Counted from the stretch's first letter, positions 8,214 through 30,050 are shown. The stretch: DNA of 64,000 nucleotides from an uncultured Candidatus Saccharibacteria bacterium (GCA_964426735.1 CAYRRP010000001.1:157226-221225), one strand, 5' to 3'. A program made the numbers and translations. Notes: a model not told the origin generated them from the letters alone.

Positions 8214-8239
8214 GAACTCCCGAAAGGGAGTTTTTGTTT
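8214..8239 (+). terminator. rho-independent terminator after rpsI (ACTCCCgaaaGGGAGT plus T-run)
   Basis: hairpin plus TTTTTGTTT read in sequence; near-identical hairpin re-used at 22240. Confidence 0.6.
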
Positions 8240-8339
8240 ATGCAACCTTCTATAAAATAACTTGACAAGTATAATAATATAATGTACCATATATAAGAGT
8301 AAGGTTCTTTGAACCTACAACATAACGAAGGAGCTGTGT

Positions 8340-8615: not shown

Positions 8616-8713
8616 TTTGTTTTTGCTTTCTTAGCTAGAAAGCGTTGTACTGGTGTAGTAAATGTGTGCCTCTGTGATAACTCACAGAAAAAGGTTTTCG
8701 GACCAAAAAGCAG

Positions 8714-8740
8714 GTCGTCCAACGGACGACTTTTTCTTTT
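8714..8740 (+). terminator. rho-independent terminator (GTCGTCCaacGGACGAC plus T10)
   Basis: read in sequence. Confidence 0.55.
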
Positions 8741-8820
8741 GTCCAATAATTTCATAATTAATTTTGCCGGAGACAGCAGGGTCTTTGATTTTATAAAAAT
8801 TTCGAGTATAATCCACTCGT

Positions 8821-9459
8821 ATGAATGACGACCAACTAAAAAAAGATTTAGAAGAATCACTTGAGGGTGAAGAAAAAGTGTCAAGGACAGTCCTTGACAC
8901 TAATGAATCTACTGAAGAAGTGGATGATGTTGTGTTTGAAGATAACACCGAAGTGACCGGTGCTGATTTTAATAAAAAATATAATGCTCTGAAGGGAAAA
9001 GTAAAAGAGCTTGAAGCGAAAGCCACAGAATACCTCAATGGTTGGCAGCGAGATAAAGCGGATTTTCTTAACCTCAGAAAAAAAGACGAAGAAGCTAAAA
9101 AGCAGGTAGCTTCATTTGCTAAAGAAGATTTAATCAATGAACTCATCCCGGTACTCGACAGTTTTGAGTCTGCAATGAAAAATAAAGAAGTTTGGGCAAA
9201 AGTGGATTCAAACTGGAGGGTAGGGGTGGAGTATATCGCATCTCAGCTCAACCAAACCCTTGAAAACAACGGTCTGAAGAAGGTGTATCCTTTGGGACAA
9301 ACCTTTGATCATACTCGTGACGAGGCTATCGAAATGCTCCCTACAGAGGATGAGAGTAAGGATGGGGTAGTGTTGGAAGTGGTCCAAACTGGCTACATGT
9401 TTGGTGACCGCCTCGTGAGACCACCAAAGGTTCGTGTTGGAGAATACAAAAAGGATTAA
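8821..9459 (+). CDS. grpE: nucleotide exchange factor GrpE
   Basis: GWQRDKADFLNLRKK and downstream GrpE dimerisation/β-domain pattern. Confidence 0.9.
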   Translation: MNDDQLKKDLEESLEGEEKVSRTVLDTNESTEEVDDVVFEDNTEVTGADFNKKYNALKGKVKELEAKATEYLNGWQRDKADFLNLRKKDEEAKKQVASFAKEDLINELIPVLDSFESAMKNKEVWAKVDSNWRVGVEYIASQLNQTLENNGLKKVYPLGQTFDHTRDEAIEMLPTEDESKDGVVLEVVQTGYMFGDRLVRPPKVRVGEYKKD

Positions 9460-9491
9460 GGTAGTAGAATTAAGAATAATAGTAATTGGTG

Positions 9492-9561
9492 TTTACATAG
9501 GGTACCCCTATGTAAACAATGTTTGTATAAGAGATGGATACATAGGGGTACCCTATGTAAA
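9492..9561. repeat. inverted pair of a 21-bp REP-like palindrome (TACATAGGG-TACC-CCTATGTA at 9494-9514 and 9539-9559), 24-bp spacer
   Basis: read directly; each copy is a near-perfect palindrome with a GGG/GGGG asymmetry, the two copies are reverse complements of each other. Confidence 0.8.
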
Positions 9562-9573
9562 GAAAAGTTAAAG

Positions 9574-9597
9574 CCAGAGACCCTCGAAGGTCTCTGG
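9574..9597 (-). terminator. hairpin CCAGAGACCctcgaaGGTCTCTGG, followed by a T-rich tract on the minus strand
   Basis: read in sequence; lies just downstream (minus sense) of ORF 9611-9871. Confidence 0.4.
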
Positions 9598-9610
9598 CGG
9601 TGGAACTGTT

Positions 9611-9871
9611 TTAGTGGCAAGTGTTAGCCCAATTCGCTATAGAGCGAAGGGTTTTCTGGAATGTTAGACTTTGGTATGGAGTAGACATCTCGGGGTCAAA
9701 GAGCAAAAACAGCTCATTGATGTCTTGATTGAGTTCACTTACTTGATCACTGTCCATATGCGCATCTGCGTTGATTCTTCTTGCGAGGATCAATCGAACA
9801 GTCTTTTCATCAATGTTTACTTCTTTTGATGTATCCCTGAGGATATCACGAACATTGTATTTGATAATCAT
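9611..9871 (-). CDS. hypothetical small protein (86 aa), possible helix-turn-helix (SKEVNIDEKTVRLILARRI); divergent from dnaK
   Basis: ORF between grpE and dnaK on opposite strand, bracketed by palindromic repeats; own terminator. Confidence 0.35.
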   Translation of the reverse strand: MIIKYNVRDILRDTSKEVNIDEKTVRLILARRINADAHMDSDQVSELNQDINELFLLFDPEMSTPYQSLTFQKTLRSIANWANTCH

Positions 9872-9926
9872 TCTAACAGTGAAGTTACTCTATAAAAATA
9901 GATTTGTCAAAACAAATGGTTATATA

Positions 9927-9965
9927 ACAGATTTTACATAGGGGTACCCTATGTAAAATCTGTTA
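9927..9965. repeat. third copy of the 21-bp palindrome, here with extended arms (39-bp palindrome AACAGATTTTACATAGGGGTACCCTATGTAAAATCTGTT) abutting the dnaK -35
   Basis: read directly. Confidence 0.8.
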
Positions 9966-9968
9966 AAC

Positions 9969-9996
9969 TTGCATAAAAAACAAAAGATATTATAAT
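9969..9996 (+). promoter_or_regulatory. dnaK promoter TTGCAT-N16-TATAAT
   Basis: hexamers at 9969-9974 and 9991-9996, about 55 nt upstream of dnaK ATG. Confidence 0.45.
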
Positions 9997-10048
9997 AGTT
10001 AACACGTTAAGTATTAATATTTATTAATAAAAATAACCACAAAATCAT

Positions 10049-11956
10049 ATGAGTAAGATTATTGGTATCGATCTAGGAACAACAAACTCAGCCGTGGCAG
10101 TCATGGAGGTAGGTGCTCCAAAAATCCTCGAAAACACAGAAGGTGCACGTACTACTCCATCTATCGTCGCGGTATCTAAAACAGGTGAACGCCTTGTTGG
10201 TCTTTTGGCTAAACGACAGGCAGTAACAAACCCAAAGAACACCATCTTTGGTATCAAACGATTCATCGGTCATTCGTATGAAGATACTGCAGTGCAGAAA
10301 GATAAAGGAATCGTACCATATGAAATGTCAAAATCTCCGTCTGGAGGTGTGCTCGTAACACTCAATGGTAAACAATACTCACCAGAAGAGGTGTCAGCGA
10401 TGATTCTCTCTAAACTCAAAGCAGATGCTGAAGCAAAGCTTGGAGAAAAAGTGACTCAGGCTATCATCACTGTACCTGCGTATTTCAATGACACACAGCG
10501 AAAGGCAACAAAAGATGCAGGTGCTATTGCAGGTCTCGAAGTACTTCGAATCATCAATGAGCCGACCGCAGCAGCACTCGCATATGGTTTTGATAAAAAT
10601 CGAAAGGATGAAAAGATTGTAGTTTTCGACTTCGGAGGAGGTACTTTTGACGTATCAGTACTTGAAGTAGATGTGGACGAAGTGGGTGGAGATATCAAAG
10701 TAAAAGCAACAGACGGAGACTCACATCTCGGAGGAAAAGATATTGATCAGAAAATCATCAACTACCTTGCGGATGAATTCAAAAAAGAATCAGGTATCGA
10801 TGTGCGCAACGATGCACTCGCACTCCAGCGACTCGATGAGGCAGCCGAGAAAGCGAAGATTGAGCTTTCAACTGCACTTGAATCAGAAGTAAATATTCCA
10901 TTCATCACTTCAGATTCTTCTGGTCCACGACATCTTTTGGTAAAAATCACCCGAGCAAAACTCGAAGAGCTTGCTGATGAATTTATCGAACGAGCAATGC
11001 AAATCACCAAACGAGCTATGGAAGCTTCTGGTTTCGATAAGTCTGCAATCAACGAAGTAATCCTCGTAGGAGGTCAGACTCGTATGCCAAAAATGGCAGA
11101 AAAAGTAAAAGAATTTTTCGGAAAAGAACCAAACAAATCTATCAACCCAGATGAAGTGGTAGCACTCGGAGCTGCGATCCAAGGAGGTATTCTTTCTGGA
11201 GACGTAAAGGACGTGCTTCTTTTGGATGTGATTCCACTTTCACTTGGTATCGAAACAATGGGAAATGTCTCTACAAAACTTATTGAACGAAACACCACTA
11301 TTCCAGCTTCAAAGTCTCAGGTATTTTCTACTGCAGCAGACAACCAGACTTCTGTAGAGATTCATATCACTCAAGGTGAGCGAGCGATGGCAGCAGACAA
11401 CAAGTCTCTTGGTCGCTTTATCCTCGATGGTATTCCACCTGCTCCACGAGGTATGCCTCAAATCGAAGTAACTTTTGATGTGGATGCAAATGGTATTCTC
11501 TCAGTAAAAGCAAAAGATAAGGCAACAAATAAAGAACAATCTATCCGTATTGAAGCACGCTCAGGGCTTTCAAAAGAAGATATTGAGCGTATGCAGAAAG
11601 ACGCAGAAGCTCATGCAGCAGATGATCAGAAAAAACGAGATATTGCTGAGGCAAAAAATATTGCAGAACAGATGATCTACACTGCAGAGAAAGCATTGAA
11701 AGACAATGGAGATAAAGTAAATGCAGAAATTAAATCTGGAGTAGAAGCAAAAATTGCAGAACTTAAGACAGCAAAAGACGGAAGTGATATTGATGTAATG
11801 AAAAAAGCTACAGAAGCCCTTTCAACTGAAATGTCTAAAATTGGTGAAGCAATGAGTAAAGCACACCCGGAACAAGCCTCAGGTGATGCCCCAAAAACTG
11901 AAGGGGAAAATGTAAGGGATGCGGAATTTGAAGAAAAAAAAGAGGAAGGTAAGTAA
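10049..11956 (+). CDS. dnaK: molecular chaperone DnaK (Hsp70)
   Basis: [24 protein letters not shown] and other Hsp70 signatures, 635 aa. Confidence 0.97.
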
Positions 11957-11962
11957 GCAGAA

Positions 11963-11996
11963 AGACCGGGAGCACATGGCTCACCGGTCTTTGGTA
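11963..11996 (+). terminator. rho-independent terminator after dnaK
   Basis: AGACCGGGAGCacatgGCTCACCGGTCT plus TTTGGT. Confidence 0.55.
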
Positions 11997-12287
11997 TTAA
12001 TCCAGTTTACTGAGATCATCCATGAGATAAATGGAGGCAGTTTTAACACCATCACCACGAACCTCCTTCGAAAAAACATTGGCTCCAGTCACTTTAGTGT
12101 ATCCTTGCTTTAGGATAAAGCGCTCCACTTTATTTCGATTCATCCCTGTGCCTGCCCTGAAATACGAAACATGACCGTTGGGATGTTGTAGTTCGACCAT
12201 GTATGTACTATCTTTTGTTCGGCTCATTTTTTCCTCTAAAATAACCCTACTTGAATTTAATGTTCCGTCAAGTATACTATCAATCAT
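11997..12287 (-). CDS. questionable antisense ORF (96 aa) in the dnaK-dnaJ spacer; start codon overlaps dnaJ ATG
   Basis: ORF-track ORF; no recognisable family; upstream region lies inside dnaJ. Confidence 0.2.
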
Positions 12288-13371
12288 GGCAAATAAAGAC
12301 TATTATCAAATTCTTGGTGTATCAAAAAACGCTTCAAAAGACGAAATTAAAAAAGCGTTTCGTACACTTGCACACAAATACCATCCAGACAAAGGAGGTG
12401 ATGCAGAAAAGTTTAAGGAAATAAACGAAGCGTACGGAGTGCTTTCTGATGATAAAAAGAAAGCGACCTACGACCAGTACGGCTCAGCAGATGCGGGGGC
12501 AGGCTTTGGTGGAGGCAATCCTTTTGGGGGTGGAGGTTTTGGTGGTTTTGATTTTTCTGGTTTTCAACAAGGTGGACAAGGCGCCTCATTTGAATTTGAT
12601 ATGGGAGACCTTTTTGGTGACATGTTTGGAGGAGGAAGACAGTCTCGAACACCTCGGGGCGCTGATATTCAAGTAGATCTTGAGCTTTCGTTTGAAGATG
12701 CGGTATTTGGTACAGAACATACGTTTACACTCAACAAAACATCAACCTGTGATCATTGTAACGGTAGTGGTGCAGAAAAGGGAAGTGAACTTCTTAAATG
12801 TTCAACCTGTGACGGAAAAGGAAAAGTGAAAGAGATAAAAAGTACGATTTTTGGTCAGTTTGAATCAGCCTCACTATGTCACACATGTCACGGAAAAGGG
12901 AAAGTTCCTAAGGTGAAATGTTCAGTATGTAAAGGTCACGGAGTGTACCGCAAACCAACAGAAATAAAAGTAAAAATTCCTGCAGGAATAAACGCAGGTG
13001 AAATGGTGCGACTTTCTGGTGGTGGAGAAGCTGTCGAAGGTGGAACATCTGGAGATTTGTATATTCGTATGCATATCAAAAAGCATCCACATTTTACAAA
13101 AGTTGACCACAACTTGGTAATGGATAAAAAAATAAAACTTACCGATGCATTGTTGGGTGCTACGTATGAAATTAAAACACTCGACGGAGACATCTCACTG
13201 AAAGTTCCTGAAGGTATTCAGCATGGAGAAATTCTTAAAATAAAAGGAAAAGGTGTACCATACGATGGATCAAAACGAGGTGATATCTTGGTGCGAGTAC
13301 TTATCGATATTCCTAAACTCTCAAAAAATAGTCGAAAGATAGCTGAAGAACTAAAAAAAGAAGGGTTTTAG
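12286..13371 (+). CDS. dnaJ: molecular chaperone DnaJ (start at ATG 12286, [12 protein letters not shown])
   Basis: J-domain HPD motif (YHPDKGG), G/F-rich region, four CxxCxGxG zinc-finger repeats. Confidence 0.95.
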
Positions 13372-13624
13372 ATATAAAAAAAGAGGTGACTGTTCGCAGC
13401 AGTACAACCTCTCAAGGAAAGCGATGTTCGAAGCAACGCTTTCCAGTATTCGCAAGCACTACGGGTCTGTGTATCCTGCATAGAGCGGATACTCTTTAAT
13501 AATACTCATCAAAGTAAGCTAAGTCAAGTATGCGTTTTGTTTATGGTAACCACAGTACATTTCTAGTAGATGTTACCGTCCTATCCACAAGGGCAACAGA
13601 AAAATATTTGCTATACTTATCTAT

Positions 13625-14080
13625 ATGAATTTTCCTACAGATGTTCTTATAATCGTCGGTATATTTTTAGTCGGTACTCTATTTACTTTTTTCATGGGAA
13701 AAAGTCGCGGTGTCTCGATCATACTTGCTCTGTTTGGATCAATACCTCTTTTCCAATCGTTTCCTTTTACACAACAACTAACTGTAGCCACAGGTGATTT
13801 TGCTCGTTCTATAAATGTAATTGGAATCTTTCTTGTATTCACTATCGGCTTATACTTCTTACTCAATCGCTATGTAGTAGGGGATTTTATCGAAGGCAAC
13901 TTTTTCAAATCAGTGATCTTTGGTATTGCATTTACCGCCATTATTCTTGCATTAGTACACTTTATCCTTCCTTTTGATCCGATTTATGATTTCAAACAAA
14001 ACGTTGATCAGTGGTTCGGAGGAAACTTCGGTATGTTTTGGTGGATACTCGCACCGTTGATGATTTTGTTGTTTGTATAA
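13625..14080 (+). CDS. hypothetical integral membrane protein (4-5 TM helices)
   Basis: highly hydrophobic 151-aa ORF. Confidence 0.5.
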   Translation: MNFPTDVLIIVGIFLVGTLFTFFMGKSRGVSIILALFGSIPLFQSFPFTQQLTVATGDFARSINVIGIFLVFTIGLYFLLNRYVVGDFIEGNFFKSVIFGIAFTAIILALVHFILPFDPIYDFKQNVDQWFGGNFGMFWWILAPLMILLFV

Positions 14081-14182
14081 GGTACTTTTTTAAACTATTT
14101 TTTAGAGAGGGTTCGATAAATGGCTCAATAAAGCCATTTATTTTGATGTTTGTAAAGTCAATAGAAAAACTGTGGATAAGTG

Positions 14183-14210
14183 TTGACAATTTAAATAAAA
14201 GGGGTAGAGT
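14183..14210 (+). promoter_or_regulatory. promoter-like TTGACA-N16-TAGAGT upstream of GC-rich secreted-protein gene
   Basis: same TTGACA/TAGAGT hexamer pair recurs at 21624-21653. Confidence 0.3.
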
Positions 14211-14277
14211 TTATAGTGTAAAAGGGACAGTAAAAAAGATCCCTTAAGTTCATTACAAAGAAAAGGAGGTGGACGCA

Positions 14278-15102
14278 ATGCCCACCAAAAATTTTGCGAT
14301 CGTATTTTTTTTGCTGGTGCTTTTGTGCACCAGCACGTCCGCAACCGCCCAGTTTTTGCCTGGCAATGAACTAAAAAATGTGTTGGGACCCTACCAGAAC
14401 CCCGTTGCGGTGTCTCTGGTTGAAAATGGGGGCACGATTGCCCTCAAGGTTCAGCTCACCGGGCCACAATGCATCCCGAGAATGTCTGCGTTTGCGCAGC
14501 TCGAGCGTCTGATTTCGGGTGACTGGGTACCACAAGGTCCCCAATTACCGGTCCAACTTGGAAACTTCGGTCGAGGTCCACTCGACAAGACGCTCCGGAC
14601 CGCTGGAGTGTTCATGGGATCAAACAACGAAAGTTTCCCGGCGGGCGACTACCGACTAATCAGCTTTGTCTGGTCGATCGGTGACTCAGAAAACACGAAG
14701 TGTCCGGTCTCTCAGTACATCACGTACAAAGAGACTCCCCACCTGCATATTGGTGCCGGCTTCAACGGTAAACTGTCCAGTGTAGGAAAGGCCAGCATCC
14801 CGTCGCTCAACGACGGCAAGTTGGATTTCCAAGCGATTTTGGTAAGTCGTACACGACTAACCATTTTCCAGGAATTCGGTTCCGAAAAAGTCGTCGGGTT
14901 CTCCGAGGATTACCCCGCGGGTAACTCTACGATTCGGACGAATCTCCATCCGGAGTTTCGGCCTGGCCTCTCCATCAAGGTGCACATCCTCGATCTCGAG
15001 TCTGGCGACTCAACTGTCGCCACGCTCTTCGAGCCGACACCGAATGTTCGTTTCAATGCTTTGCCCCGGAATACCGGAGGAAGCCAACCGGAGTGGCAAT
15101 AA
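14278..15102 (+). CDS. secreted hypothetical protein with signal peptide; markedly GC-rich (about 55%), probable horizontal acquisition (start ATG 14278 with AGGAGG SD)
   Basis: composition contrast with flanks read by eye; N-terminal hydrophobic signal FAIVFFLLVLLCTSTSATAQ; own promoter and terminator. Confidence 0.6.
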   Translation: MPTKNFAIVFFLLVLLCTSTSATAQFLPGNELKNVLGPYQNPVAVSLVENGGTIALKVQLTGPQCIPRMSAFAQLERLISGDWVPQGPQLPVQLGNFGRGPLDKTLRTAGVFMGSNNESFPAGDYRLISFVWSIGDSENTKCPVSQYITYKETPHLHIGAGFNGKLSSVGKASIPSLNDGKLDFQAILVSRTRLTIFQEFGSEKVVGFSEDYPAGNSTIRTNLHPEFRPGLSIKVHILDLESGDSTVATLFEPTPNVRFNALPRNTGGSQPEWQ

Positions 15103-15120
15103 TCACTCCATAACAATACA

Positions 15121-15152
15121 GCCGCCACACCCTCCAGGGTCTGGCGGCTTTT
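15121..15152 (+). terminator. rho-independent terminator (GCCGCCAcaccctccagggtcTGGCGGC plus TTTT)
   Basis: read in sequence. Confidence 0.6.
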
Positions 15153-15228
15153 ACCATATTTTTAAATTGAGCCTTATCCACAACTTTAAATTTTAAACAG
15201 TAGTGATTGTCTGTGGTATAATTTACTA

Positions 15229-15729
15229 ATGGGAATAACCAAAAAGATACTACTTATTTTTATTGGATTAATTTTTGTCGTAGCAAGTGGATTTGGTGGT
15301 TTTTATGTAATACAAAAACTTTTTATTACAAAGGCAGACATATTAGATCAACCAAAAGTGAGTACGGTATCTACTATAGAAGTAGAACGTGATGTATATA
15401 ACAAAATTCCAAAAGATTTTCCTAAAAATCTCATTCCTGAAGATGATATAGTTTCAATTATCGAAAGTTTTACAGTATCGGATACCCCAGAAAGAAAGCA
15501 ATACACTGTACGTTATATTAGTAAAAAAAATATTGCTGAAAATCAAAAATATTTTGAAACGTATGTAGCAAAAACCCCTGGTTTTTCTCTGACAACAGAT
15601 TTTTTAACAAATTCAACAACATTCTTATCAATGGGCATACGTAACAAAAAAACAGAAATAAATATTACAGTTAATTTAAATCAACAGTACGGGTATATTG
15701 TTGATGTAACAATGTTGCAACAACTATGA
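15229..15729 (+). CDS. small membrane-anchored protein (N-terminal TM, about 130-aa extracytoplasmic domain); partner of downstream giant gene (TGA/ATG overlap)
   Basis: paralogous to 19371-19847 (shared VESF.V....QYT.RYI.K motif and architecture). Confidence 0.55.
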   Translation: MGITKKILLIFIGLIFVVASGFGGFYVIQKLFITKADILDQPKVSTVSTIEVERDVYNKIPKDFPKNLIPEDDIVSIIESFTVSDTPERKQYTVRYISKKNIAENQKYFETYVAKTPGFSLTTDFLTNSTTFLSMGIRNKKTEINITVNLNQQYGYIVDVTMLQQL

Positions 15730-18700
15730 AAAAAAACTTTTTTGCATTAATAGTTATTTTTTTTATTAGCTTTGGTTTTTTTGATTTACCTGTAGTAGAA
15801 GCTCAGAGTTGTTCAAATGTTGGTTATGATTCTTGTGGAAACTATACGTCTCGGTCTTGTAGTGGTGCTACAAGTTGTTCGGTTACAGATTTAGGAAATG
15901 GATCTTGTTACCAAACATGTACATGTCCAGTTTTAACCCTTCAAGGTTCTAGCTTCAGTGGATGGACATCAGGAACGTTTCAAAATGGACAACAGTTTTG
16001 TACAGCTATGTACGAGGGTCCTGCATGTCAGATAAGTGGTGGTAGTGGAGCATCTATATCTTTTCCTGCATACGCTTGTGGTACTGTAAACAACAATCCT
16101 TCATCAGTATGTAATAACAATGGAATTTGTGAATCTGGAGAAAACAGCACATATTGTCCTCTTGATGGTTGTCCTCCACCAACTTCATCTTTTTTTACAC
16201 TTTCTGTAAGTCCTGCAACAAGATCTGTTCTTAACGGAGAGCTTGCTAATTTCACTCTAACTATTACACCTTCAGTGTCTCCTACAACAGGACTTGGTGA
16301 TGTACGTGCTGTTGGTGCATACACATTACCTGTACCAATTCCTGGATGTCCAAGTGGAGCAACTTGTACATATCAAGGTGGTAGTAACACTATACAAGTT
16401 ACTGAAGATACAACTTCTGGAGGAGTAGATTTTGCTGTAGCAGCATCAAAAGGTGTCATTGTTGCACCTTCAACAGTAAGTCCAGCTACATATCAACTAA
16501 ATTTTTCAGCAGTAAATCCTTTTAACCAAACAAAAACCGCCACCGCCACCCTCATCGTAAGCTCAGGTATAAACGGAGCAACCTGTCTCTCTATCGACTC
16601 TCAAGTAGGAGGTGTATCAACATCATCATTCTCTCCAGGACAACAATTTACTCTTGTTGCACGTCTACGTAATACAGGTACTAAAATATGGGACAACGTA
16701 TATACCAGTGCATCAGATCAAGAACATTTCCTCGGAGCATGGAATCCTGGAGGTGATCCATGGGGTCCAGGTTCTGGCAGAACACGCCTCCCAAACGGTA
16801 CTGCTATACCACCCAATGGGGAAGTAACCTTTACACGTACACTAACTGCACCTTCTACACCAGGTACCTATGATTTTCAGTTTGCTATCGTTGAAGATGC
16901 TGTTCAATGGATCACTGCACCTGGTGCTGTGTGTGTGAAGTCGGGAGGGGTGACGGTGGTTGCTTCTATGCCAAACCTTACTGCAGGTACTGTCACACCA
17001 ACAAGCACAAGTATAAACACTGCAACAACCTTTTCATCCACTATTTCAAACTCAGGTTCAGGATCAACAGGAGCATCTTTCTCAAACTTCTTTCAAGTAG
17101 CAACAGCAGCAAATGGAGGAGGTACTGTAACAGACCTTAGTGCTACCACCATGTCTACTCTCGCATCTGGAGCGACCGGCACAGCCACATCTCCGTCATA
17201 TACCTTTACTACAGCCGGAACATATTCGGTTCGTGCATGTGCAGATAAGACAAATTCATCAAATACTGGTTCAATTAACGAAACTAATGAAAGTGACAAC
17301 TGTGGAAGTTGGACGACAGTCACCGTAGGTAATGGTACAAACAACGCTTCATGTACTGCTATCACACCTTCAAAAACAACCGTAACTCCTGGTGAAGTAT
17401 TTAGTGCGAGTGTGACCATGTACAACAACGGAACAAACACATGGTCTCCAAACGACATGCGTGCTGATGTGAGTGGAGTAAATAACTATCATATTACTGT
17501 ATCACCATGGGCTTCCACTTGGAATTGGGGAAGAGCAGCGGTCTCATCAAACATAAATCCAGGGTCATCAACCACATTTACCATACCGCTTACTGCGCCA
17601 AGCACTGCAGGAACATATAACCTATCAACGCAAATGCTTCAAGAAGGTGTTGAGTGGTTTGGTGCATTATGTAATGCAGGGACAATTACAGTAAGTAACC
17701 CAAATACATGCGATCCTTCTGCGGTAGGAACAAACCAAATGGTTGGATGTGTGTATACAGGAATGAACTTTAACTCACTTGCACCCATATCAGCGTTGAC
17801 AGCTCCAGCTCTCTCAAGTCCTGCTCCATCATCAGCATCACCGTTACCATGGACAAACTGGGGCGGAGGAGGTCCTGGATCACTTACGGATAACTATTCA
17901 GTTCGATGGAAAGGAAATTTTAACTTTTCAGCTGGCAATTATACCTTCAGTGTTGATTCTGATGATGGATCTCGAGCATATTTTGACGACAATGGCGATG
18001 GAAATCCTGATAGTGGATATCTAGTGAGTGCGTGGTATGACCGTGGAAGTGGAGTTGTTGTATCTGGAAGCCCTGTTGCGGTGACAGCTGGAGTACATCG
18101 TCTTGTGTATGAAATGTATGAAAATGGTGGCGGATCAGTGTATAACTTATCATGGACAAGTACCGCACCTTCTCCGATTACGGTAAGTATATCTCCATAC
18201 TATACATCGATCACAAACTATCCAACCATCAGTGACAACAGTATCTACTGGACAACCACTGGAAACCCAGACTCGTGTACCACTTCAGGATCGAGTCCAT
18301 GGAGTACGGCAATCATTGTTCCTATTGCAAGCGGAAATCAATATCAAGGAAACTATCCAGGTACAGGAACATATACATACAACATCACTTGTACAAAATC
18401 AGGTGTGTCAAATGCGACAGCATCAATCACCGTACCTGTATCAAGTACACCTCTTCCGAGTGGAACACTTACTCCAGCTTCTCCGAGCTGTACAATAGCT
18501 TCTGGTGCAAGCTCATGTACTGTAAATCTCTCATGGACAACCACAAACCCTATCGGCACATCAGTACTAACCAGTAATACTTCAAACACAGGAGCATCAG
18601 CACCAAATACAACAGTCTCATCAGGAAACTCTGGGACAAACGTAGCAGTAACGGTGCCATACAGTAGCCGAGTGTTTACCTTGTATAACAACTCGTCACT

Positions 18701-19331
18701 ACTTGCAACAAGTAACGCTTCTGCAAGTTGCGTGAGTGGTACCACATGGAACGGAAGTATCTGTGCACCAAATACACCAATAACCGTAAGTATATCTCCA
18801 TACTATACATCGATCACAAACTATCCAACCATCAGTGACAACAGTATCTACTGGACAACCACTGGAAACCCAGACTCGTGTACCACTTCAGGATCGAGTC
18901 CATGGAGTACGGCAGTGATCAGTCCGATCAGTGGTGGGATGCAGTATCAGGGAAGTTATCCTGGGGTTGGAACTTATACATACAATATTACGTGTATGAA
19001 GGCGGGTGTTTTGAACGCATCTGCTTCTGTAAGTGTGGCTGTCTCTACTGCACCTCCAACACAATATACGATTACTGTAACAAGACCTGTTGGTGGAACT
19101 GTTACCACTGTAGACACATTCATCTCTTGTGGAGCAACCTGTACTCGTCAATATACAGGAGGATCAACCGTTACACTTCAAGCAGTTCCGAGTACTTCAT
19201 ATTGGAAATTTGTAGGGTGGGGAGGAGCATGTAGTGGTCAGGGTGTAGGAAACTGTACGATTACGGTATCAGGAAACACTGCAGTCACTGCAACATTTAG
19301 ACCTAAAGCACTTCTGTATCAAGAGTTCTAA
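15726..19331 (+). CDS. giant secreted Cys-rich surface protein (1201 aa): signal peptide, Cys-rich head, two Ig-like β-sandwich modules, PA14 domain, duplicated ISPYYTSITNYPTISDNSIYWTTTGNPDSC module, C-terminal InlB-B-repeat-like domain
   Basis: PA14-like segment YSVRWKGNFNFSAGNYTFSVDSDDGSRAYFDDNG...; C-terminal CGATCTRQY...VGWGGACSGQGVGNCTITV motif typical of divergent InlB B-repeat domains; S/T-rich low-complexity linkers. Confidence 0.8.
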   Translation: MKKNFFALIVIFFISFGFFDLPVVEAQSCSNVGYDSCGNYTSRSCSGATSCSVTDLGNGSCYQTCTCPVLTLQGSSFSGWTSGTFQNGQQFCTAMYEGPACQISGGSGASISFPAYACGTVNNNPSSVCNNNGICESGENSTYCPLDGCPPPTSSFFTLSVSPATRSVLNGELANFTLTITPSVSPTTGLGDVRAVGAYTLPVPIPGCPSGATCTYQGGSNTIQVTEDTTSGGVDFAVAASKGVIVAPSTVSPATYQLNFSAVNPFNQTKTATATLIVSSGINGATCLSIDSQVGGVSTSSFSPGQQFTLVARLRNTGTKIWDNVYTSASDQEHFLGAWNPGGDPWGPGSGRTRLPNGTAIPPNGEVTFTRTLTAPSTPGTYDFQFAIVEDAVQWITAPGAVCVKSGGVTVVASMPNLTAGTVTPTSTSINTATTFSSTISNSGSGSTGASFSNFFQVATAANGGGTVTDLSATTMSTLASGATGTATSPSYTFTTAGTYSVRACADKTNSSNTGSINETNESDNCGSWTTVTVGNGTNNASCTAITPSKTTVTPGEVFSASVTMYNNGTNTWSPNDMRADVSGVNNYHITVSPWASTWNWGRAAVSSNINPGSSTTFTIPLTAPSTAGTYNLSTQMLQEGVEWFGALCNAGTITVSNPNTCDPSAVGTNQMVGCVYTGMNFNSLAPISALTAPALSSPAPSSASPLPWTNWGGGGPGSLTDNYSVRWKGNFNFSAGNYTFSVDSDDGSRAYFDDNGDGNPDSGYLVSAWYDRGSGVVVSGSPVAVTAGVHRLVYEMYENGGGSVYNLSWTSTAPSPITVSISPYYTSITNYPTISDNSIYWTTTGNPDSCTTSGSSPWSTAIIVPIASGNQYQGNYPGTGTYTYNITCTKSGVSNATASITVPVSSTPLPSGTLTPASPSCTIASGASSCTVNLSWTTTNPIGTSVLTSNTSNTGASAPNTTVSSGNSGTNVAVTVPYSSRVFTLYNNSSLLATSNASASCVSGTTWNGSICAPNTPITVSISPYYTSITNYPTISDNSIYWTTTGNPDSCTTSGSSPWSTAVISPISGGMQYQGSYPGVGTYTYNITCMKAGVLNASASVSVAVSTAPPTQYTITVTRPVGGTVTTVDTFISCGATCTRQYTGGSTVTLQAVPSTSYWKFVGWGGACSGQGVGNCTITVSGNTAVTATFRPKALLYQEF
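16536..16960 (+). repeat. 425-bp block apparently 100% identical to 20525-20949 in the paralogous gene (encodes an Ig-like module ATATLIVSSG...KSGGVTVV)
   Basis: boundaries read base-by-base; identical encoded peptide and identical nested ORFs 16612-16827 / 20601-20816 in the ORF track. Confidence 0.85.
18182..18914 (+). repeat. intragenic direct duplication: 129 bp identical at 18182-18310 and 18786-18914, followed by diverged continuation (module repeated twice in gene 1, once in gene 2)
   Basis: read in sequence. Confidence 0.8.
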
Positions 19332-19370
19332 ATATACACAGAAGACCTTCTGTCGTGATATACTTTTTCT

Positions 19371-19847
19371 ATGCATTACATACGTACATTTTTCATCTCG
19401 CTTTGTGTTGTACTCCTTGTTCTCGTCATTTTTTTGACTGGAGTACACCTCTTTTCTATGGAACAAGAAGACACAAGCACATTACCATCTACAACTGACA
19501 CGACTTCTACTCTCAAACGTGATGCATTGAATACATACCCGGATTCATTTCCTGCCAAACTCATTACTGAGAAAAATATCTCTGTTGTTGAGAGTTTTTC
19601 TGTAGATACAGAAAATCAGATTCAATACACCTACCGATATATCACTAAACTCTCTGCCGTAGAAAACTATACACACATCACTTCATTTATGAATACAGAA
19701 GGGTGGAAAAAAGGGACACCAGCTCAGTTTCCTTCGGGATGGAGTATCGATTTTTTCAAAGGGAACGACGTGTTATCAGCAACATATTCTGTAAATACCC
19801 AAACAAAGACCTCGGTTATCGATATAACACTTCTTAAGGATAAATAG
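19371..19847 (+). CDS. small membrane-anchored protein, paralogue of 15229-15729
   Basis: same architecture; precedes second giant gene by 5 nt. Confidence 0.55.
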   Translation: MHYIRTFFISLCVVLLVLVIFLTGVHLFSMEQEDTSTLPSTTDTTSTLKRDALNTYPDSFPAKLITEKNISVVESFSVDTENQIQYTYRYITKLSAVENYTHITSFMNTEGWKKGTPAQFPSGWSIDFFKGNDVLSATYSVNTQTKTSVIDITLLKDK

Positions 19848-19852
19848 CAGAT

Positions 19853-21508
19853 ATGAAAAAATACACACTTTTTATCATTAGTCTGGTTATAGCTTTCACC
19901 TTTTTCGGATTACCTAAAGCACTCAATGCACAGTCATGTAGTGATGAGTGTGCAATGTTTGGTACATGTAAAGCAAATTCGCGATCGTGTGGTGGTGAAC
20001 AGACATGTACTGTCAACAGTACCTATACAAATGCTGATGGAGAATCATGTACGGAGTACTCATGTAGTTGTGACAGTACAACCGTACAAGGTACATCATA
20101 CAGTGGATGTGTTGGTTCGTATCTACAAAGCAATCTCGAGTGTCAGTATTATGGCTCATTTTGTCAGTATACTGACCCTGTTCCATATGGATATATTCGT
20201 ACAGAATGTACTACATCAGGTAATGAAGAAACACAGACAGATTTTTCTATCACTCTATCGCCAAACACACGAAGTATTGTAAATGGAGAAACAACCGTAT
20301 TTTCAGTTACTATTGCGCCAATCAGTAATGTAGACGGTCGTACTCTTTCGATGTCAGTATCCGGATGTCCTACAGGAGCTACATGTACTCTCAGTGGTGG
20401 GAATACCGCAACATTTGCAAACCCTGCAGTAGCTCTTACAAAAACACTGACGATCACTTCTACATCTGCTCAACCACACACATACACAATCACTGTAAGT
20501 GCCACAACAAACAACGTGACCCGCACCGCCACCGCCACCCTCATCGTAAGCTCAGGTATAAACGGAGCAACCTGTCTCTCTATCGACTCTCAAGTAGGAG
20601 GTGTATCAACATCATCATTCTCTCCAGGACAACAATTTACTCTTGTTGCACGTCTACGTAATACAGGTACTAAAATATGGGACAACGTATATACCAGTGC
20701 ATCAGATCAAGAACATTTCCTCGGAGCATGGAATCCTGGAGGTGATCCATGGGGTCCAGGTTCTGGCAGAACACGCCTCCCAAACGGTACTGCTATACCA
20801 CCCAATGGGGAAGTAACCTTTACACGTACACTAACTGCACCTTCTACACCAGGTACCTATGATTTTCAGTTTGCTATCGTTGAAGATGCTGTTCAATGGA
20901 TCACTGCACCTGGTGCTGTGTGTGTGAAGTCGGGAGGGGTGACGGTGGTATCAGGAAGTCCAATTACAGTAAGTTTGGCAGCATACTATCCATCGATCAC
21001 AAACTATCCAACCATCAGTGACAACAGTATTTACTGGACAACCACCGGCAATCCAGACTCATGTACGCCATCAGGATCAGCTCCATGGAATACTGCAGTG
21101 ATTAGTCCAATCAGTAGTGGCAACCAATATCAAGGAAATTACCCAGATACAGGCACATATACATACAACATCACCTGTACAAAAGCAGGTGTACCAAACG
21201 CAACAGCATCTGTCACTGTACCAGTATCGCGCGTATCTCAGTATACCCTTACCGCAATCAAGCCTATTGGTGGAAGAATTGTTACAGCTGATGCACATAT
21301 TTCTTGTGGATTTACATGCAGTCACCAGTATGCCGAGGGTTCATCAGTTATACTTCAAGCTATTCCTGATACTACATACTGGAGATTTGTAGGGTGGGGA
21401 GGAGCATGTAGTGGTCAGGGAACAGGGAATTGTACGGTTACAATGAACGGAAATGTAACCGTAAGTGCTCAATTCAAGCCTCGATCTCTCTTTTATCAAG
21501 AATTCTAG
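19853..21508 (+). CDS. second secreted Cys-rich surface protein (551 aa): different Cys-rich head, shared identical Ig-like block, one ISPYY-type module, C-terminal InlB-B-repeat-like domain
   Basis: signal peptide MKKYTLFIISLVIAFTFFGLPKALNAQ; shares 425-bp identical block and C-terminal ...YQEF end with 15726-19331. Confidence 0.8.
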   Translation: MKKYTLFIISLVIAFTFFGLPKALNAQSCSDECAMFGTCKANSRSCGGEQTCTVNSTYTNADGESCTEYSCSCDSTTVQGTSYSGCVGSYLQSNLECQYYGSFCQYTDPVPYGYIRTECTTSGNEETQTDFSITLSPNTRSIVNGETTVFSVTIAPISNVDGRTLSMSVSGCPTGATCTLSGGNTATFANPAVALTKTLTITSTSAQPHTYTITVSATTNNVTRTATATLIVSSGINGATCLSIDSQVGGVSTSSFSPGQQFTLVARLRNTGTKIWDNVYTSASDQEHFLGAWNPGGDPWGPGSGRTRLPNGTAIPPNGEVTFTRTLTAPSTPGTYDFQFAIVEDAVQWITAPGAVCVKSGGVTVVSGSPITVSLAAYYPSITNYPTISDNSIYWTTTGNPDSCTPSGSAPWNTAVISPISSGNQYQGNYPDTGTYTYNITCTKAGVPNATASVTVPVSRVSQYTLTAIKPIGGRIVTADAHISCGFTCSHQYAEGSSVILQAIPDTTYWRFVGWGGACSGQGTGNCTVTMNGNVTVSAQFKPRSLFYQEF

Positions 21509-21538
21509 TACTGTAAGCAATTTCTTTCATAAGTGAGA

Positions 21539-21575
21539 TAAAACCCCGCTTTTATCGCTCAGCGGGATTTTATAT
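21539..21575 (+). terminator. rho-independent terminator after second surface-protein gene
   Basis: AAAACCCCGCttttatcgctcaGCGGGATTTT plus T-rich. Confidence 0.5.
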
Positions 21576-21623
21576 TACACGGCTCAATAAAGCCATATAA
21601 TATAAAAATTCTAAAAAAAGTCC

Positions 21624-21653
21624 TTGACAAAAAGGGTAGGGGTGTGCTAGAGT
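21624..21653 (+). promoter_or_regulatory. promoter-like TTGACA-N18-TAGAGT
   Basis: read in sequence; same hexamers as 14183-14210. Confidence 0.3.
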
Positions 21654-22222
21654 ATAAGGGACTCAAACATCGTATGTTGAGTCTTTTCATTAGGGTCAAA
21701 CCACCCTTCATTCCGGATACGTCAGAATTACTACTTAAAAAACGTCTTATTTTAAATTTTACCGCTATTAGTTTGTTTATGGTTTTCTCAACAGTTGCAG
21801 GTGTTCACACTCCAGTAACTATTACAGAAGCTCCTACAATGGAAGTCCAAGTAAAAAACCAAGCTCTTAGAAAAGAAAATATAGAAAAGAAGATGTCTAC
21901 AGAAGAGTACGTGCGAAATCATTTCGCCGATACTCCGATTCTTGCAGAGATTGCACGATGTGAATCTCAATTTCGTCAGTTCGATAAGAACGGTGAAGTA
22001 TTGCGAGGTGTAGTAAACGATCGTGACGTCGGAGTAATGCAGATTAACGAGTATTATCACTTGGAGACTGCTGAAAAGACAAATATCGACATCTATACCC
22101 TTGAAGGAAACCTTGAGTACGGACGAAAACTTTATGAAAAGTTCGGTACCGATCCATGGAATGCTTCTAAACCTTGTTGGGGTAAAAATCTTGAACAGCT
22201 TGCTGTTGAAGTAAAAGCCTAA
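21644..22222 (+). CDS. membrane-anchored lysozyme-like / lytic transglycosylase (SLT-like) domain protein; true start probably downstream of 21644
   Basis: ARCES...(about 22 aa)...GVMQIN pattern resembling SLT catalytic E-S ... GLMQ motif; N-terminal hydrophobic helix. Confidence 0.45.
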   Translation: MLEYKGLKHRMLSLFIRVKPPFIPDTSELLLKKRLILNFTAISLFMVFSTVAGVHTPVTITEAPTMEVQVKNQALRKENIEKKMSTEEYVRNHFADTPILAEIARCESQFRQFDKNGEVLRGVVNDRDVGVMQINEYYHLETAEKTNIDIYTLEGNLEYGRKLYEKFGTDPWNASKPCWGKNLEQLAVEVKA

Positions 22223-22239
22223 GCAAACTTAAAAACAAA

Positions 22240-22264
22240 AAACTCTCGAAAGGGAGTTTTTTGT
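22240..22264 (+). terminator. rho-independent terminator (AACTCTCgaaaGGGAGTT plus T6)
   Basis: near-copy of the rpsI terminator hairpin. Confidence 0.55.
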
Positions 22265-22272
22265 TGTATATA

Positions 22273-22306
22273 AAACCCCCGCCTTCGTTAACAAACGAAA
22301 GCGGGG
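22273..22306 (-). terminator. convergent minus-strand terminator for 22319-22804
   Basis: CCCCGCtttcgtttgttaacgaaGGCGGGGG followed by TTTT on minus strand. Confidence 0.5.
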
Positions 22307-22318
22307 AAATCCATCTAC

Positions 22319-22804
22319 CTACTGAACAGTTTTCATGAATCTGTTGATGCTCGCAATGAGCTGGTCCTCAGAATACGGTTTTCTCTCTATCACACAGATA
22401 GTTCGATCATGCGGGAAAAAACTGTGCACATCTTCTTGAGCAGACCGGACATTCTGCGTGTAGATAATAGTAGGTATATGGTAGTTATAACGACGCAAGT
22501 ACCATAACAGATGCATCGATGCTTCATCGTCATACAAAGGATCCTCATCATGAAGCGTTGGAATCTTTTGAACAAGCTCATTACGTAAACCATTACCACT
22601 GACCATCTCTTGTATAAAAAAGGAATGCTCCATCACTAGAATGTCTGGTGAAGAAATAGGGATGATATGGGCAACAGCTTCGTCTAAGCTGTTGAGTGGG
22701 ACAATTTCAGCACCAACAAAAGCTTCCTCAAGAACTTTCACAATCTGAGAGATTTCACCGGGGTTAAAAACCCCAACAACCATAATTTTTTTCTTTTTCG
22801 ACAT
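22319..22804 (-). CDS. hypothetical protein, possibly degenerate CheY-like receiver fold
   Basis: MVVGVF...α/β alternation pattern but no acidic pocket residues; weak. Confidence 0.35.
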   Translation of the reverse strand: MSKKKKIMVVGVFNPGEISQIVKVLEEAFVGAEIVPLNSLDEAVAHIIPISSPDILVMEHSFFIQEMVSGNGLRNELVQKIPTLHDEDPLYDDEASMHLLWYLRRYNYHIPTIIYTQNVRSAQEDVHSFFPHDRTICVIERKPYSEDQLIASINRFMKTVQ

Positions 22805-23176
22805 ACTTTGTGCTCCTCTGTTATTTATATCATGTCAGCTTATATACGCAACATACATAAAAAACAATTATCTAGCGTGCATTCCTATGCGGGGGACCTT
22901 AGTAGTACATGTCGCACAATATATCTTTTGTACATGCTACGCCTGAGTAAATACACTTTAATTTAAATCATTTTGGATTTTAAAATCTGGGATTAATATA
23001 TTTATATATAAAAATAATCCCACTCTCCCCTAAAGGTGGAACTCTTTTTTCTTCTCTTTTTATTTGTACCCTTTTATTAATATTTCCTATTTTTGCTTGC
23101 CTCAAAATTTCTGTTCCCGATAGGGAAGTCCCCTATTCTTTTTGACCAGATAGAGTACTTTAGTCCAAAAAAATTA

Positions 23177-30048: not shown

Positions 30049-30050
30049 AA

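Follow-up and report, generated by a model that had tools for sequence, protein, structure and literature searches.

The adhesin operons of Mycoplasma genitalium (MgpB/MgpC, or P140/P110) and M. pneumoniae (P1/P40-P90) are accompanied by MgPar and RepMP repeats, respectively; the donors are promoterless partial copies scattered over the genome, and the segments exchanged are variable, exposed regions. Among the sap paralogues of Campylobacter fetus, a common identical block supports RecA-dependent rearrangement; there the block is the 5' end of the genes, and the switch is a promoter inversion. In TraA of Myxococcus xanthus, a protein with a MYXO-CTERM sorting tag, specificity is set by a variable PA14-like domain itself.

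We analyzed a locus that shares features with each of these systems. In the window, the 64,000-nucleotide stretch of DNA under study, positions 15229-21508 hold two tandem gene pairs on the plus strand, each with a small gene (S1 or S2) followed by a large one (L1 or L2) (Table 1). All four open reading frames proposed in an earlier note on this DNA were confirmed, as was the overlap of the S1 stop with the L1 start (ATGA); S2 and L2 are separated by 5 nt. Each S protein has one N-terminal transmembrane (TM) helix, which in S1 spans approximately residues 3 to 35 and is followed by a disordered Ser/Thr/Pro-rich linker and an ectodomain. Both L proteins begin with a hydrophobic signal-peptide-like segment, their only hydrophobic segment, followed by A-Q-S-C, and they contain 36 and 22 Cys (3-4%). 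The description of the small proteins as membrane-anchored and the large ones as secreted and Cys-rich therefore holds. S1 and S2 are 40% identical over 75 residues by BLASTP and 27% identical in global alignment. The promoter-like site in the L1-S2 spacer and the promoter region of S1 have a 17-nt stretch in common, a mark of the duplication junction, and the two cassettes are old, divergent alleles in tandem.

Table 1. Features of the locus and its surroundings, numbered from the first letter of the window
Feature	Position	Strand	Remarks
18-nt palindrome ATGGCTCAATAAAGCCAT, left copy	14120-14137	+	TM151/U edge of variable island
Promoter-like site after left palindrome	14183-14210		TTGACA-N16-TAGAGT
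U	14269-15102	+	277 aa; N-terminal signal-peptide-like segment; hypervariable island member
Terminator-like hairpin 3' of U	15121-15152		
Promoter-like site before S1	15194-15222	+	TAAACA-17-TATAAT, TG-extended -10; consensus match only
S1	15229-15729	+	166 aa; small type-II membrane protein
L1	15726-19331	+	1201 aa; large secreted Cys-rich protein
L1 signal peptide	15726-15803	+	
L1 Cys-rich head	15804-16193	+	
L1 Ig1	16194-16535	+	with CPSGATC
L1 NBR1-type Ig 'A'	16536-16960	+	425-bp block
L1 CARDB	16962-17315	+	
L1 NBR1-type Ig 'B'	17316-17693	+	
L1 PA14	17694-18164	+	
L1 ISPYY module 1	18165-18485	+	
129-bp exact duplicate, copy 1	18183-18311	+	in ISPYY module 1
L1 Ig-like	18486-18773	+	
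L1 ISPYY module 2	18774-19055	+	
129-bp exact duplicate, copy 2	18786-18914	+	in ISPYY module 2
L1 B-repeat domain	19056-19328	+	terminal YQEF
Promoter-like site in L1-S2 spacer	19335-19364	+	spacer of 39 nt; TG-extended -10
S2	19371-19847	+	158 aa; small membrane-anchored protein, same family as S1
L2	19853-21508	+	551 aa; large secreted Cys-rich protein
L2 Cys-rich head	19931-20242	+	signal peptide precedes
L2 Ig1	20243-20524	+	with CPTGATC
L2 NBR1-type Ig 'A'	20525-20949	+	425-bp block
L2 ISPYY module	about 20957-21265	+	
L2 B-repeat domain	to 21505	+	terminal YQEF
Terminator-like hairpin 3' of L2	about 21544-21572		
Palindrome ACGGCTCAATAAAGCCAT, right copy	21579-21596	+	L2/D edge of variable island
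Promoter-like site after right palindrome	21624-21653		TTGACA-N18-TAGAGT

We assigned Pfam domains when the score exceeded the curated gathering threshold, and the PA14, CARDB, Ig-like, and InlB-B-repeat domains named in the earlier note all did. CARDB (PF07705) scored 36.7 bits for L1 residues 413-530 (cutoff 22.7; profile positions 2-98 of 101). N_BRCA1_IG (PF16158; cutoff 28) scored 31.5 bits for the domain in the identical block described below, 38.9 for L1 531-656, and 28.9 for L2, and Flg_new_2 (PF18998, 'divergent InlB B-repeat'; cutoff 23.6) scored 35.6 for L1 and 43 for L2, with precomputed matches also on record for P0001, P0002, P0004, and P0005. The PA14 match (PF07691) in L1 is marginal, at 28.4 bits for residues 657-813 and 26.5 for the full protein against a cutoff of 24, and only profile positions 43-79 align; the typical RW.G...G.Y.F..DDG motif is present. 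The Pfam search found no PA14 domain in L2, and L1 is the only large protein annotated here that has one.

In their signal peptide, specialized N-terminal domain, and variable number of Ig-like stalk domains, the L proteins resemble Gram-positive MSCRAMM/stalk-type adhesins, and as in those adhesins the conserved C-terminal region is a natural candidate for the anchor. Unlike them, L has no LPXTG motif, C-terminal hydrophobic segment, or charged tail: every L protein examined terminates in YxEF-COOH directly after a globular B-repeat domain, with no NCBIfam sorting-signal match. L also differs in its Cys-rich head, which has no assigned fold, and in the dedicated small membrane protein encoded directly upstream. 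The ectodomain of S1 has a putative Mog1/PsbP/DcrB-like fold; sequence identity of S to DcrB, PA1624, and DUF1795 (Eag) is only 4-14%, and S has no sequence match in Pfam, NCBIfam, or the PDB. Unlike these proteins, S is anchored by a TM helix rather than a lipid, and no known member of that group is paired with a large secreted Ig-domain protein. We rejected a polymorphic toxin/immunity pair, given the variable N terminus and conserved C terminus of L and the upstream position of the small gene, which together reverse the expected polarity; the Pfam search of the cassette proteins found no toxin domain.

The two L genes share an exact block, identical at 425 of 425 positions as the earlier note had supposed, which lies in frame (L1 codons 271-412, L2 codons 225-366) and spans the final strand of Ig1 and an entire NBR1-type Ig domain. 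Its edges are sharp on both sides, and the in-register flanks are 22-40% identical, which is random. At conserved four-fold codons, the third positions of L1 and L2 match at a frequency of 0.99 within the block and 0.37-0.62 outside it, so the identity of the block is far beyond chance; synonymous sites are near saturation outside, with zero differences inside. Judged from these alignments, the data show that a whole NBR1-type Ig domain passed very recently and non-reciprocally from one old paralogue to the other, leaving the block behind, in keeping with the earlier proposal of recent recombination or gene conversion. The predicted internal 129-bp perfect duplication of L1 is also present, within a 233-bp repeat of 84.5% identity. 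Together with a 40-nt exact repeat (18205-18244 = 18808-18847 = 20991-21030) and a 36-nt one (19208-19243 = 21385-21420), it suggests further short conversion tracts.

The few available orthologues bear on the direction of the exchange. In L2, Ig1 and the block are collinear with P0002 (58% and 53% identity). In the orthologues of L1 (L018 and P0003), the domain found at L1 531-656 comes immediately after Ig1. Because these orthologues lack the block at that position, it looks native to L2, the likely donor, and imported into L1, the likely recipient. Donation of a whole domain by L2 describes the event better than homogenization of two equivalent domains, although an older NBR1-A-like domain in L1 may have been overwritten by the L2 copy. 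In diverged strains, one contig stops exactly 30 nt into the equivalent of the block (L047, 83% strain) and another 45 nt into it (L048, 77% strain). Given that the L2-type copy was not recovered from either sample, recurrent homogenization at the same boundary is circumstantial.

The cassettes lie in an island that varies between strains, in keeping with the variable adhesin system proposed in the earlier note. The neighborhood (grpE)-dnaK-dnaJ-TM151-U-S-L-D-...-HI0933, with one S-L pair, was found in L003, L005, L011, and L018, and its inner part, U-S-L-D, in L001. The 18-nt palindromes at the island edges, expected by chance 0.02 times per window, are placed identically in L003, L005, L011, and L018. 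Two S-L pairs are present here and one in 8/8 other genomes in which an S-family gene adjoins L. In L017, L018, L022, and L023, the gene immediately upstream of L belongs to the S family; in L024 to L028, L is preceded by a small N-anchored protein, whose gene abuts or overlaps that of L in L025 and L027. Not every L requires its own S, since none separates the two tandem L genes of L026. Overall, the S-L pair is a conserved Patescibacteria (Parcubacteria-type) module whose syntenic island is hypervariable from strain to strain, and this two-gene surface module is previously undescribed.

Two comparisons indicate how the island varies. The flanks of L005 and L011 are 98.0% and 97.8% identical, whereas from TM151 to approximately residue 195 of L these genomes are 70-81% identical in patches or unalignable. 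On this evidence, the segment from the TM151 gene to the L head is replaced between strains with about 98% identical flanks, in the manner of S-layer cassette switching in Clostridioides difficile and of the C. fetus sapA homologues, in which a surface-protein cassette is replaced between conserved flanks. Unlike the block of C. fetus, the one here lies inside the genes as a direct repeat, and each gene is served by a promoter-like site of its own. Compared to L018, the window is 75% identical in U, 71% in Ig1, and 76% in NBR1-B but only 37% in S and 34% in the head, and L018 is 63% (S) and 53% (head) identical to L011; as read from these values, modules are reassorted between genomes. U has no Pfam match and is 20-36% identical between allele types. 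The L head is the most constrained part of the protein within one allele type (96-99% amino acid identity, dN/dS 0.03-0.05 at dS 0.2-1.06), a pattern indicative of discrete specificity types that homologous recombination swaps, rather than of immune-evasion-style drift. S and the head co-vary (Mantel rho 0.55, p 0.02), no more strongly than the head and Ig1 (rho 0.76), and plain physical linkage can explain this.

We think it reasonably probable that the locus is a two-gene surface module in which old alleles stand in tandem and L2 recently passed a domain to L1. S would be a type-II membrane protein with its ectodomain serving as a membrane-proximal protein-binding scaffold. L would be exported through Sec, probably disulfide-bonded, and built of a Cys-rich head, an Ig-like stalk of varying domain number and type, and a conserved C-terminal B-repeat domain that, with the tail, may hold L on the cell envelope. 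The stalk would then hold the head away from the cell as a tip that recognizes a ligand or partner, and S, often translationally coupled to L, could be its membrane-side partner, acting as an anchor or as an assembly or folding factor. If S instead binds the head, the orientation of L is reversed. Heads would be discrete, internally constrained types exchanged between strains by homologous recombination, with homology arms provided by the flanks and the 3' half of L, both of which are conserved. Judging by domain types (PA14, CARDB, Ig-like), architecture, and lifestyle, the L locus probably sets what the cell attaches to, and with two cassettes in one genome, two specificities would be displayed. 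Several protein adhesins are needed for epibiotic growth of cultivated Saccharibacteria (PMC10633639).

Alternatively, L could have a structural role, as an exposed envelope or S-layer-like protein, or be a phage receptor; its strain-level types would then reflect phage-driven selection, and the tandem copy and exchange would be by-products of envelope diversification. A conserved anchoring end with a variable exposed end and cassette-type replacement between strains do resemble S-layer switching, and the secreted U in the same island is hypervariable as well. We regard this reading as unlikely. S-layer proteins are typically Cys-poor, unlike L, and domain searches of L found neither an SLH nor a CWB2-type anchor. 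The domains PA14 and CARDB typify adhesins and glycan-binding proteins, and the strong constraint on the head within a type suggests specific binding, not mere surface decoration.

Less probable still is self or kin recognition, in which the polymorphic head would mediate homotypic recognition, as in M. xanthus TraA/TraB. Both systems have a polymorphic surface protein with Cys-rich regions and a PA14-type domain (here in L1), a co-transcribed partner gene, and, under this reading of L, allele types that set specificity; the L types are discrete, constrained within type, and very different between types. Unlike in TraA, variability resides in a separate, Cys-rich head, and of the family members examined only one contains PA14. 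Homology to TraA or TraB is absent, as is a MYXO-CTERM, and two different types per genome are unexpected for identity tags.

The earlier note had drawn a parallel with adhesins that are phase- or antigen-variable. Its proposal of recent recombination is supported, as is the variability of this surface-protein locus; the parallel with programmed switching is not supported. Strict phase or antigenic variation, in which the expressed adhesin would switch frequently with L2 or the block as donor cassette, would account for the exact 425-bp block and the 129-, 40-, and 36-nt tracts in diverged paralogues and for the recurrence of a block boundary in diverged strains, yet we consider it very improbable. 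Across the window, the scanned ORFs include no reverse transcriptase, transposase, or site-specific recombinase. We rejected a diversity-generating retroelement, which would need the reverse transcriptase and whose TR/VR repeats differ at adenines and are typically much shorter than these 100% identical ones. An invertible promoter or site-specific-recombinase switch was rejected because the repeats are direct, no inverted repeats of at least 30 nt occur in 14000-23000, and no recombinase was found among those ORFs. Slipped-strand variation was rejected because short tandem repeats were not reported for the locus and L012, L013, L014, and L015, which include 94% relatives, have the same A8 tract at the start of L1 as the window. 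Three assemblies of the strain share one arrangement with only two SNPs. Like the Mycoplasma operons, this locus has two co-transcribed surface-protein genes in a small-genome, host-dependent bacterium, and non-reciprocal homologous exchange with repeated copies has left identical blocks in diverged sequence. Unlike in Mycoplasma, with which there is no sequence homology, both copies in the window are complete tandem genes with their own promoter-like sites, and what was exchanged is a domain of the stalk. The heads, which would be the natural target, lie outside every exchanged tract, have not been swapped between the paralogues, and keep the low dN/dS given above.

An assembly or binning artefact, in which the alleles of two strains at a single-copy locus were joined side by side or polishing equalized the domains, is hardly credible even for a strain-hypervariable locus in a metagenome-assembled contig with repeats of a kind at which assemblers fail, because short-read assemblies made independently end at the edges of the repeat and read through the L1-S2 junction. 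L012 matches window 5874-16565 at 100% and ends 30 nt (k-1) into the block, and L013 ends at its last base, as a true two-copy repeat predicts for k=31 contigs. The L1 stop, spacer, and S2 start are unique sequence with no repeated 31-mer at the junction, and L016, an independent contig reported in three samples, matches 19214-20554 at 100%, covering the L1 3' end, S2, and the L2 5' end. The path A-R-B-R-C allows one traversal only. L013 carries two synonymous SNPs within the block, which is therefore read data and not a polishing product. Because the two block copies lie in the same orientation 3,989 bp apart, RecA-type deletion could readily act on them, which would give a single chimeric gene with the L1 head and the L2 tail.

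The earlier note described two consecutive modules of a small gene followed by a large one, and all four ORFs were confirmed. Each module, or cassette, pairs a small membrane-anchored protein (S1 or S2) with a large secreted Cys-rich protein (L1 or L2) made up of a signal peptide, a Cys-rich head, Ig1, an Ig-like stalk that includes ISPYY modules, and a C-terminal B-repeat domain. The S1 stop and the L1 start overlap as reported (ATGA), and a gap of 5 nt separates S2 from L2. Self-BLASTN of the region, proposed earlier as a check, returned the 425-bp block common to L1 and L2 as the sole 100% match, and a base-by-base extension test established that the claimed identity is exact. The edges of the block are sharp: no extension by even one base is possible on either side, and the in-register flanks are 22 to 40% identical, as in random sequence. 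Both genes read the block in frame (L1 codons 271 to 412, L2 codons 225 to 366). The 129-bp perfect duplication within L1 is also real and sits within a 233-bp repeat of 84.5% identity; two further short exact L1/L2 repeats measure 40 nt (three copies) and 36 nt (in both C-terminal domains).

Coordinates of features in the window
Feature	Position	Strand	Length
TM151 (conserved island flank)	13625-14080		151 aa
Palindrome, TM151|U edge	14120-14137		18 nt
U	14269-15102
S1 (ORF)	15229-15729		166 aa
L1 (ORF)	15726-19331		1201 aa
Block, copy in L1	16536-16960		425 bp
Internal duplication in L1, first copy	18183-18311		129 bp
Internal duplication in L1, second copy	18786-18914		129 bp
YxEF terminus of L1	19317-19328
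S2 (ORF)	19371-19847		158 aa
L2 (ORF)	19853-21508		551 aa
Block, copy in L2	20525-20949		425 bp
YxEF terminus of L2	21494-21505
Palindrome, L|D edge	21579-21596		18 nt
D (conserved island flank)	21644-22222		192 aa
Low-GC island	~29400-34250
C5 cytosine methylase	30862-32121	minus
MutH/Sau3AI-like endonuclease	32159-33553	minus
Region of three tandem ORFs	36035-37987
Tandem ORF, first	36095-36646		~185 aa
Tandem ORF, second	36751-37317		~185 aa
Tandem ORF, third	37427-37987		~185 aa
Exact repeat, first copy	36035-36068		34 nt
Exact repeat, second copy	37380-37413		34 nt

Pfam searches, also suggested earlier, upheld the PA14, Ig-like, and InlB-B-repeat calls above curated cutoffs. L1 contains PA14 (with marginal coverage of the profile), CARDB, two NBR1-type Ig domains, and a "divergent InlB B-repeat", and L2 contains one NBR1-type Ig domain and the B-repeat; Pfam matches nothing in the head, Ig1, or the ISPYY modules. 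As a measure of divergence between L1 and L2, we used third-position identity at conserved four-fold codons, which is 0.37 in the head, 0.39 in Ig1, 0.55 in the ISPYY modules, 0.62 in the C-terminal domain, and 0.99 in the block. Given the low values outside the block, L1 and L2 are old paralogues and the block is very young, which bears out the earlier proposal of recent recombination between otherwise diverged paralogues.

A tandem arrangement with an exact repeat might arise during assembly, so we examined short-read Logan assemblies (k=31) containing the window strain as an independent check. One contig (L012) is 100% identical to window positions 5874-16565 and ends 30 nt (k-1) inside the block; a second (L013, 14370-16960) stops on the last base of the block and carries two synonymous SNPs within it. 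A third (L016, reported in three samples) matches 19214-20554 at 100%, starts within the 36-nt repeat, covers the 3' end of L1, a 39-nt spacer, S2, and the 5' end of L2, and stops 30 nt into the block. The L1-S2 tandem junction is therefore unique sequence that has been independently confirmed. All contig breaks fall at exact repeats, as predicted for a real two-copy repeat, and an assembly artefact is very unlikely to be the source of the tandem arrangement.

Comparison with related proteins and loci indicates the direction of transfer. L2 Ig1 is most similar to that of P0002 (58%); apart from itself, the block is matched best (53%) by the domain that comes next in P0002 (residues 228-350), and the L2-P0002 nucleotide alignment continues over the left edge of the block. 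For L1 Ig1, the most similar counterparts are in L018 (72%) and P0003 (61%), where the domain immediately after Ig1 is of the NBR1 type (76% and 51% identical, respectively, to L1 residues 531-656). The nucleotide alignment with L018 covers window positions 16170-16595 and then jumps to 17340-17693, and the extra segment in L1 relative to its orthologues consists of the block plus CARDB. Because these orthologues lack that segment and L2 is collinear with P0002, the block appears native to L2, and it was most likely copied from L2 into L1. Its left edge lies in the homologous last strand of Ig1 (NQTK/TATATLIVSS versus NVTR/TATATLIVSS) and its right edge at the domain end (GGVTVV), so that the tract is one structural unit. 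The window thus records a recent, directional transfer of one domain, a dated case in which an entire domain passed from one surface-protein gene to its paralogue within a minimal genome, and it predicts specific recombinant products that can be searched for in long-read metagenomes. In two diverged strains, contigs end 30 nt (L047, an 83% strain; window-equivalent 16565) and 45 nt (L048, a 77% strain; 16580) into the block-equivalent, which hints that these strains share this repeat or mosaic boundary and may have a second block copy; if so, homogenization would have occurred repeatedly, as in concerted evolution.

In the C-terminal domain, L1 and L2 both match L017 (71% and 74%, respectively) better than they match each other (61%). 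The second cassette was therefore not copied recently; it is either an ancient duplicate or a captured allele. A TG-extended -10 promoter-like site precedes each cassette, and the 17 nt that the sites before S2 and S1 have in common mark the duplication junction.

The closest named relative is a "Candidatus Parcubacteria bacterium" MAG, and related loci all come from Patescibacteria MAGs except for one short contig binned as Nitrospira. The window itself has the gene content of an ordinary chromosome (alaS, rpoA, ribosomal proteins, grpE-dnaK-dnaJ, murG, ftsW, mraY, and aminoacyl-tRNA synthetases). The gene order (grpE)-dnaK-dnaJ-TM151-U-S-L-D...HI0933 is kept in L003/L004, L005-L010, L011, and L018, and its inner part, U-S-L-D, is seen in L001/L002; each of these loci has one S-L pair. 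A genome scan with full-length L2 found no relatives, the chosen peptides being hypervariable; alignment with the conserved C-terminal domain worked, and a scan with it (one genome per species) added 12 loci. An S-family gene lies immediately upstream of L in L017, L018, L022, and L023. L024-L028 are more distant; there, L is preceded by a small protein with an N-terminal anchor, whose gene abuts or overlaps L in L025 and L027. In L026 (6950-12622), two L-type genes lie in tandem without an intervening S gene. L019 and L021, a pair of L-type genes in another Parcubacteria MAG (ant_bin.105), match at ~90% identity at their two ends and diverge in the middle; we rejected them on these grounds as a second exact-block case, and they may be paralogues or a strain mixture. 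Together with L026, they indicate that L gene multiplication recurs in the phylum. Exact-sequence look-ups of L1, L2, and P0001 gave no match, and only P0001 and P0014 led back to the source contig. A homology query with the L1 head and Ig1 found nothing, and the block domain had nothing above 51% partial identity in JGI metagenomes. The two cassettes of the window are tandem divergent alleles of this conserved two-gene surface module.

The earlier suggestion of a variable locus was borne out between strains. L005 and L011 are 98.0% identical across grpE-dnaK-dnaJ and 97.8% identical from within L (~residue 195) onward; across TM151, U, S, and the L head they share only patches of 70 to 81% identity and are otherwise unalignable; this segment has been replaced at the strain level. 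Across eight cassettes, pairwise amino acid identities were 20 to 36% for U (one pair 75%), 23 to 46% for S (one pair 63%), and 22 to 43% for the head (one pair 53%), compared with 60 to 89% for TM151, 57 to 100% for the C-terminal 90 residues of L, and 65 to 100% for D. The window and L018 are similar in U (75%), Ig1 (71%), and NBR1-B (76%), yet differ in S (37%) and head (34%), for which L018 resembles L011 instead (63% and 53%); modules have, by these identities, been reassorted between genomes. In Mantel tests, S co-varied with the head (rho 0.55, p 0.02) and the head with Ig1 (rho 0.76, p 0.0008), and none of the three co-varied with the C-terminus, indicating that the 5' half is one linkage unit decoupled from the 3' half. 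The co-variation would be compatible with functional S-head pairing and is no proof of it; as a sign of interaction it is weakened by the stronger head-Ig1 linkage.

U has an N-terminal signal-peptide-like segment and no Pfam match, is hypervariable like S and the head, and occurs in L011 as two very different copies (5650-6432 and 6676-7443). Of the island flanks, TM151 has four or five hydrophobic segments and no Pfam match; D is membrane anchored and weakly resembles SLT (lytic transglycosylase), scoring below the Pfam cutoff.

Within an allele type, the head is strongly constrained. The L1-type allele is also present in L014 (~93% nucleotide identity), L047, and L048, whose heads are 99, 96, and 97% identical to the window at the protein level at dS values of 0.20, 0.44, and 1.06, respectively. 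Head dN/dS is 0.03 to 0.05 in these comparisons, versus 0.13 to 0.17 for the S ectodomain, 0.11 to 0.20 for U, and 0.16 to 0.18 for Ig1; such low values argue against drift under continuous diversifying selection. Judged by substitution rates, the heads fall into discrete types of long standing, and purifying selection on each type is strong, as would be expected if they were alternative binding specificities.

The suggestion of a phase- or antigen-variable system was not supported: no dedicated machinery was found, four other assemblies have the same A8 tract at the start of L1, and the head is constrained. There are no inverted repeats at the locus, and the ORFs scanned across the window include no gene for a reverse transcriptase, transposase, or recombinase. 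Readings of the locus as a DGR, SSR, invertible-switch, or toxin/immunity system were tested and rejected.

An 18-nt palindrome, ATGGCTYNATARAGCCAT, is confined to the two island edges (TM151|U and L|D) in the window and every close relative (L005 5934 and 9887; L011 5499 and 10407; L018 5931 and 10415; L003 8424; L001 4651; L017 10385), against a chance expectation of 0.02 per window. A TTGACA...TAGAGT promoter-like site lies 43 to 61 nt downstream of every copy. The palindrome may be a shared operator. We rejected it as a cassette-exchange site, since observed replacement breakpoints fall elsewhere.

All L-type proteins (434 to 1201 aa; the window, L001, L003, L005, L011, and L017-L028) end in Y-x-E-F-COOH directly after the B-repeat domain (YQEF, YIEF, YEEF, YHEF, YKEF, or YLEF), preceded by an (R/K)P(R/K)xL-like stretch. 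None of the NCBIfam sorting-signal models match the L proteins, and we found no description of the terminus in the literature; in Patescibacteria, it could serve as a C-terminal motif for retention or recognition that has yet to be described. Literature searches on CPR gene conversion, Flg_new_2, and YQEF found nothing relevant.

These features suggest how the module might work. L would be exported by Sec, stabilized by disulfide bonds, and retained via its conserved B-repeat/YxEF end, with the head held out on the Ig stalk to act as the tip for recognition; S, whose translation is often coupled to that of L, would be its membrane-side partner, an anchor or assembly factor. Head types might provide alternative attachment specificities swapped by homologous recombination, and two cassettes would then give two specificities. 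Saccharibacteria are documented as naturally competent (PMC10633639 and its preprint); on partner attachment outside Saccharibacteria, the searchable literature only mentions "large beta-rich adhesin-like proteins" (PMC4508563). Deletion of 3,989 bp through the direct 425-bp repeat could also occur and would leave a chimeric gene, with a predicted product of 597 aa. A bolder reading is tentative and on balance doubtful: the S-L pair would be the host- or partner-recognition device of Parcubacteria-type Patescibacteria, with one specificity per head type, swaps by transformation and homologous recombination, dual specificity in the tandem, and the invariant YxEF on the B-repeat as a new sortase-independent retention signal for this phylum, possibly acting via a Mog1/PsbP-like S. 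Recombining modular surface proteins are a known kind. This locus adds a new family whose S, head, and YxEF terminus are described in neither databases nor literature, which Parcubacteria-type genomes conserve as a variable island in synteny, whose heads fall into discrete types, and in which one whole domain was cleanly transferred in one direction between tandem alleles. The locus is a concrete, testable candidate for partner-cell recognition and attachment by uncultivated Parcubacteria, with a mutable YxEF motif and a partner protein of known fold class open to binding tests.

Three further observations concern related proteins and the rest of the window. P0006 (801 aa, from Logan; PG_binding_1 and DUF4214) shares 74% identity with part of L2 over an ISPYY-type module and also has a PKD-like "ISASP..." module, as in P0003-P0005, indicating that stalk modules are shuffled into other cell-wall-associated proteins. 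The low-GC island (0.31 to 0.34 versus ~0.39), which encodes an Exo_endo_phos nuclease, a YgjP-like metallopeptidase, and RadC besides the methylase and endonuclease, is probably an acquired restriction-modification system. The three tandem ORFs of ~185 aa have no Pfam match, and the exact 34-nt repeat lies upstream of the first and third.
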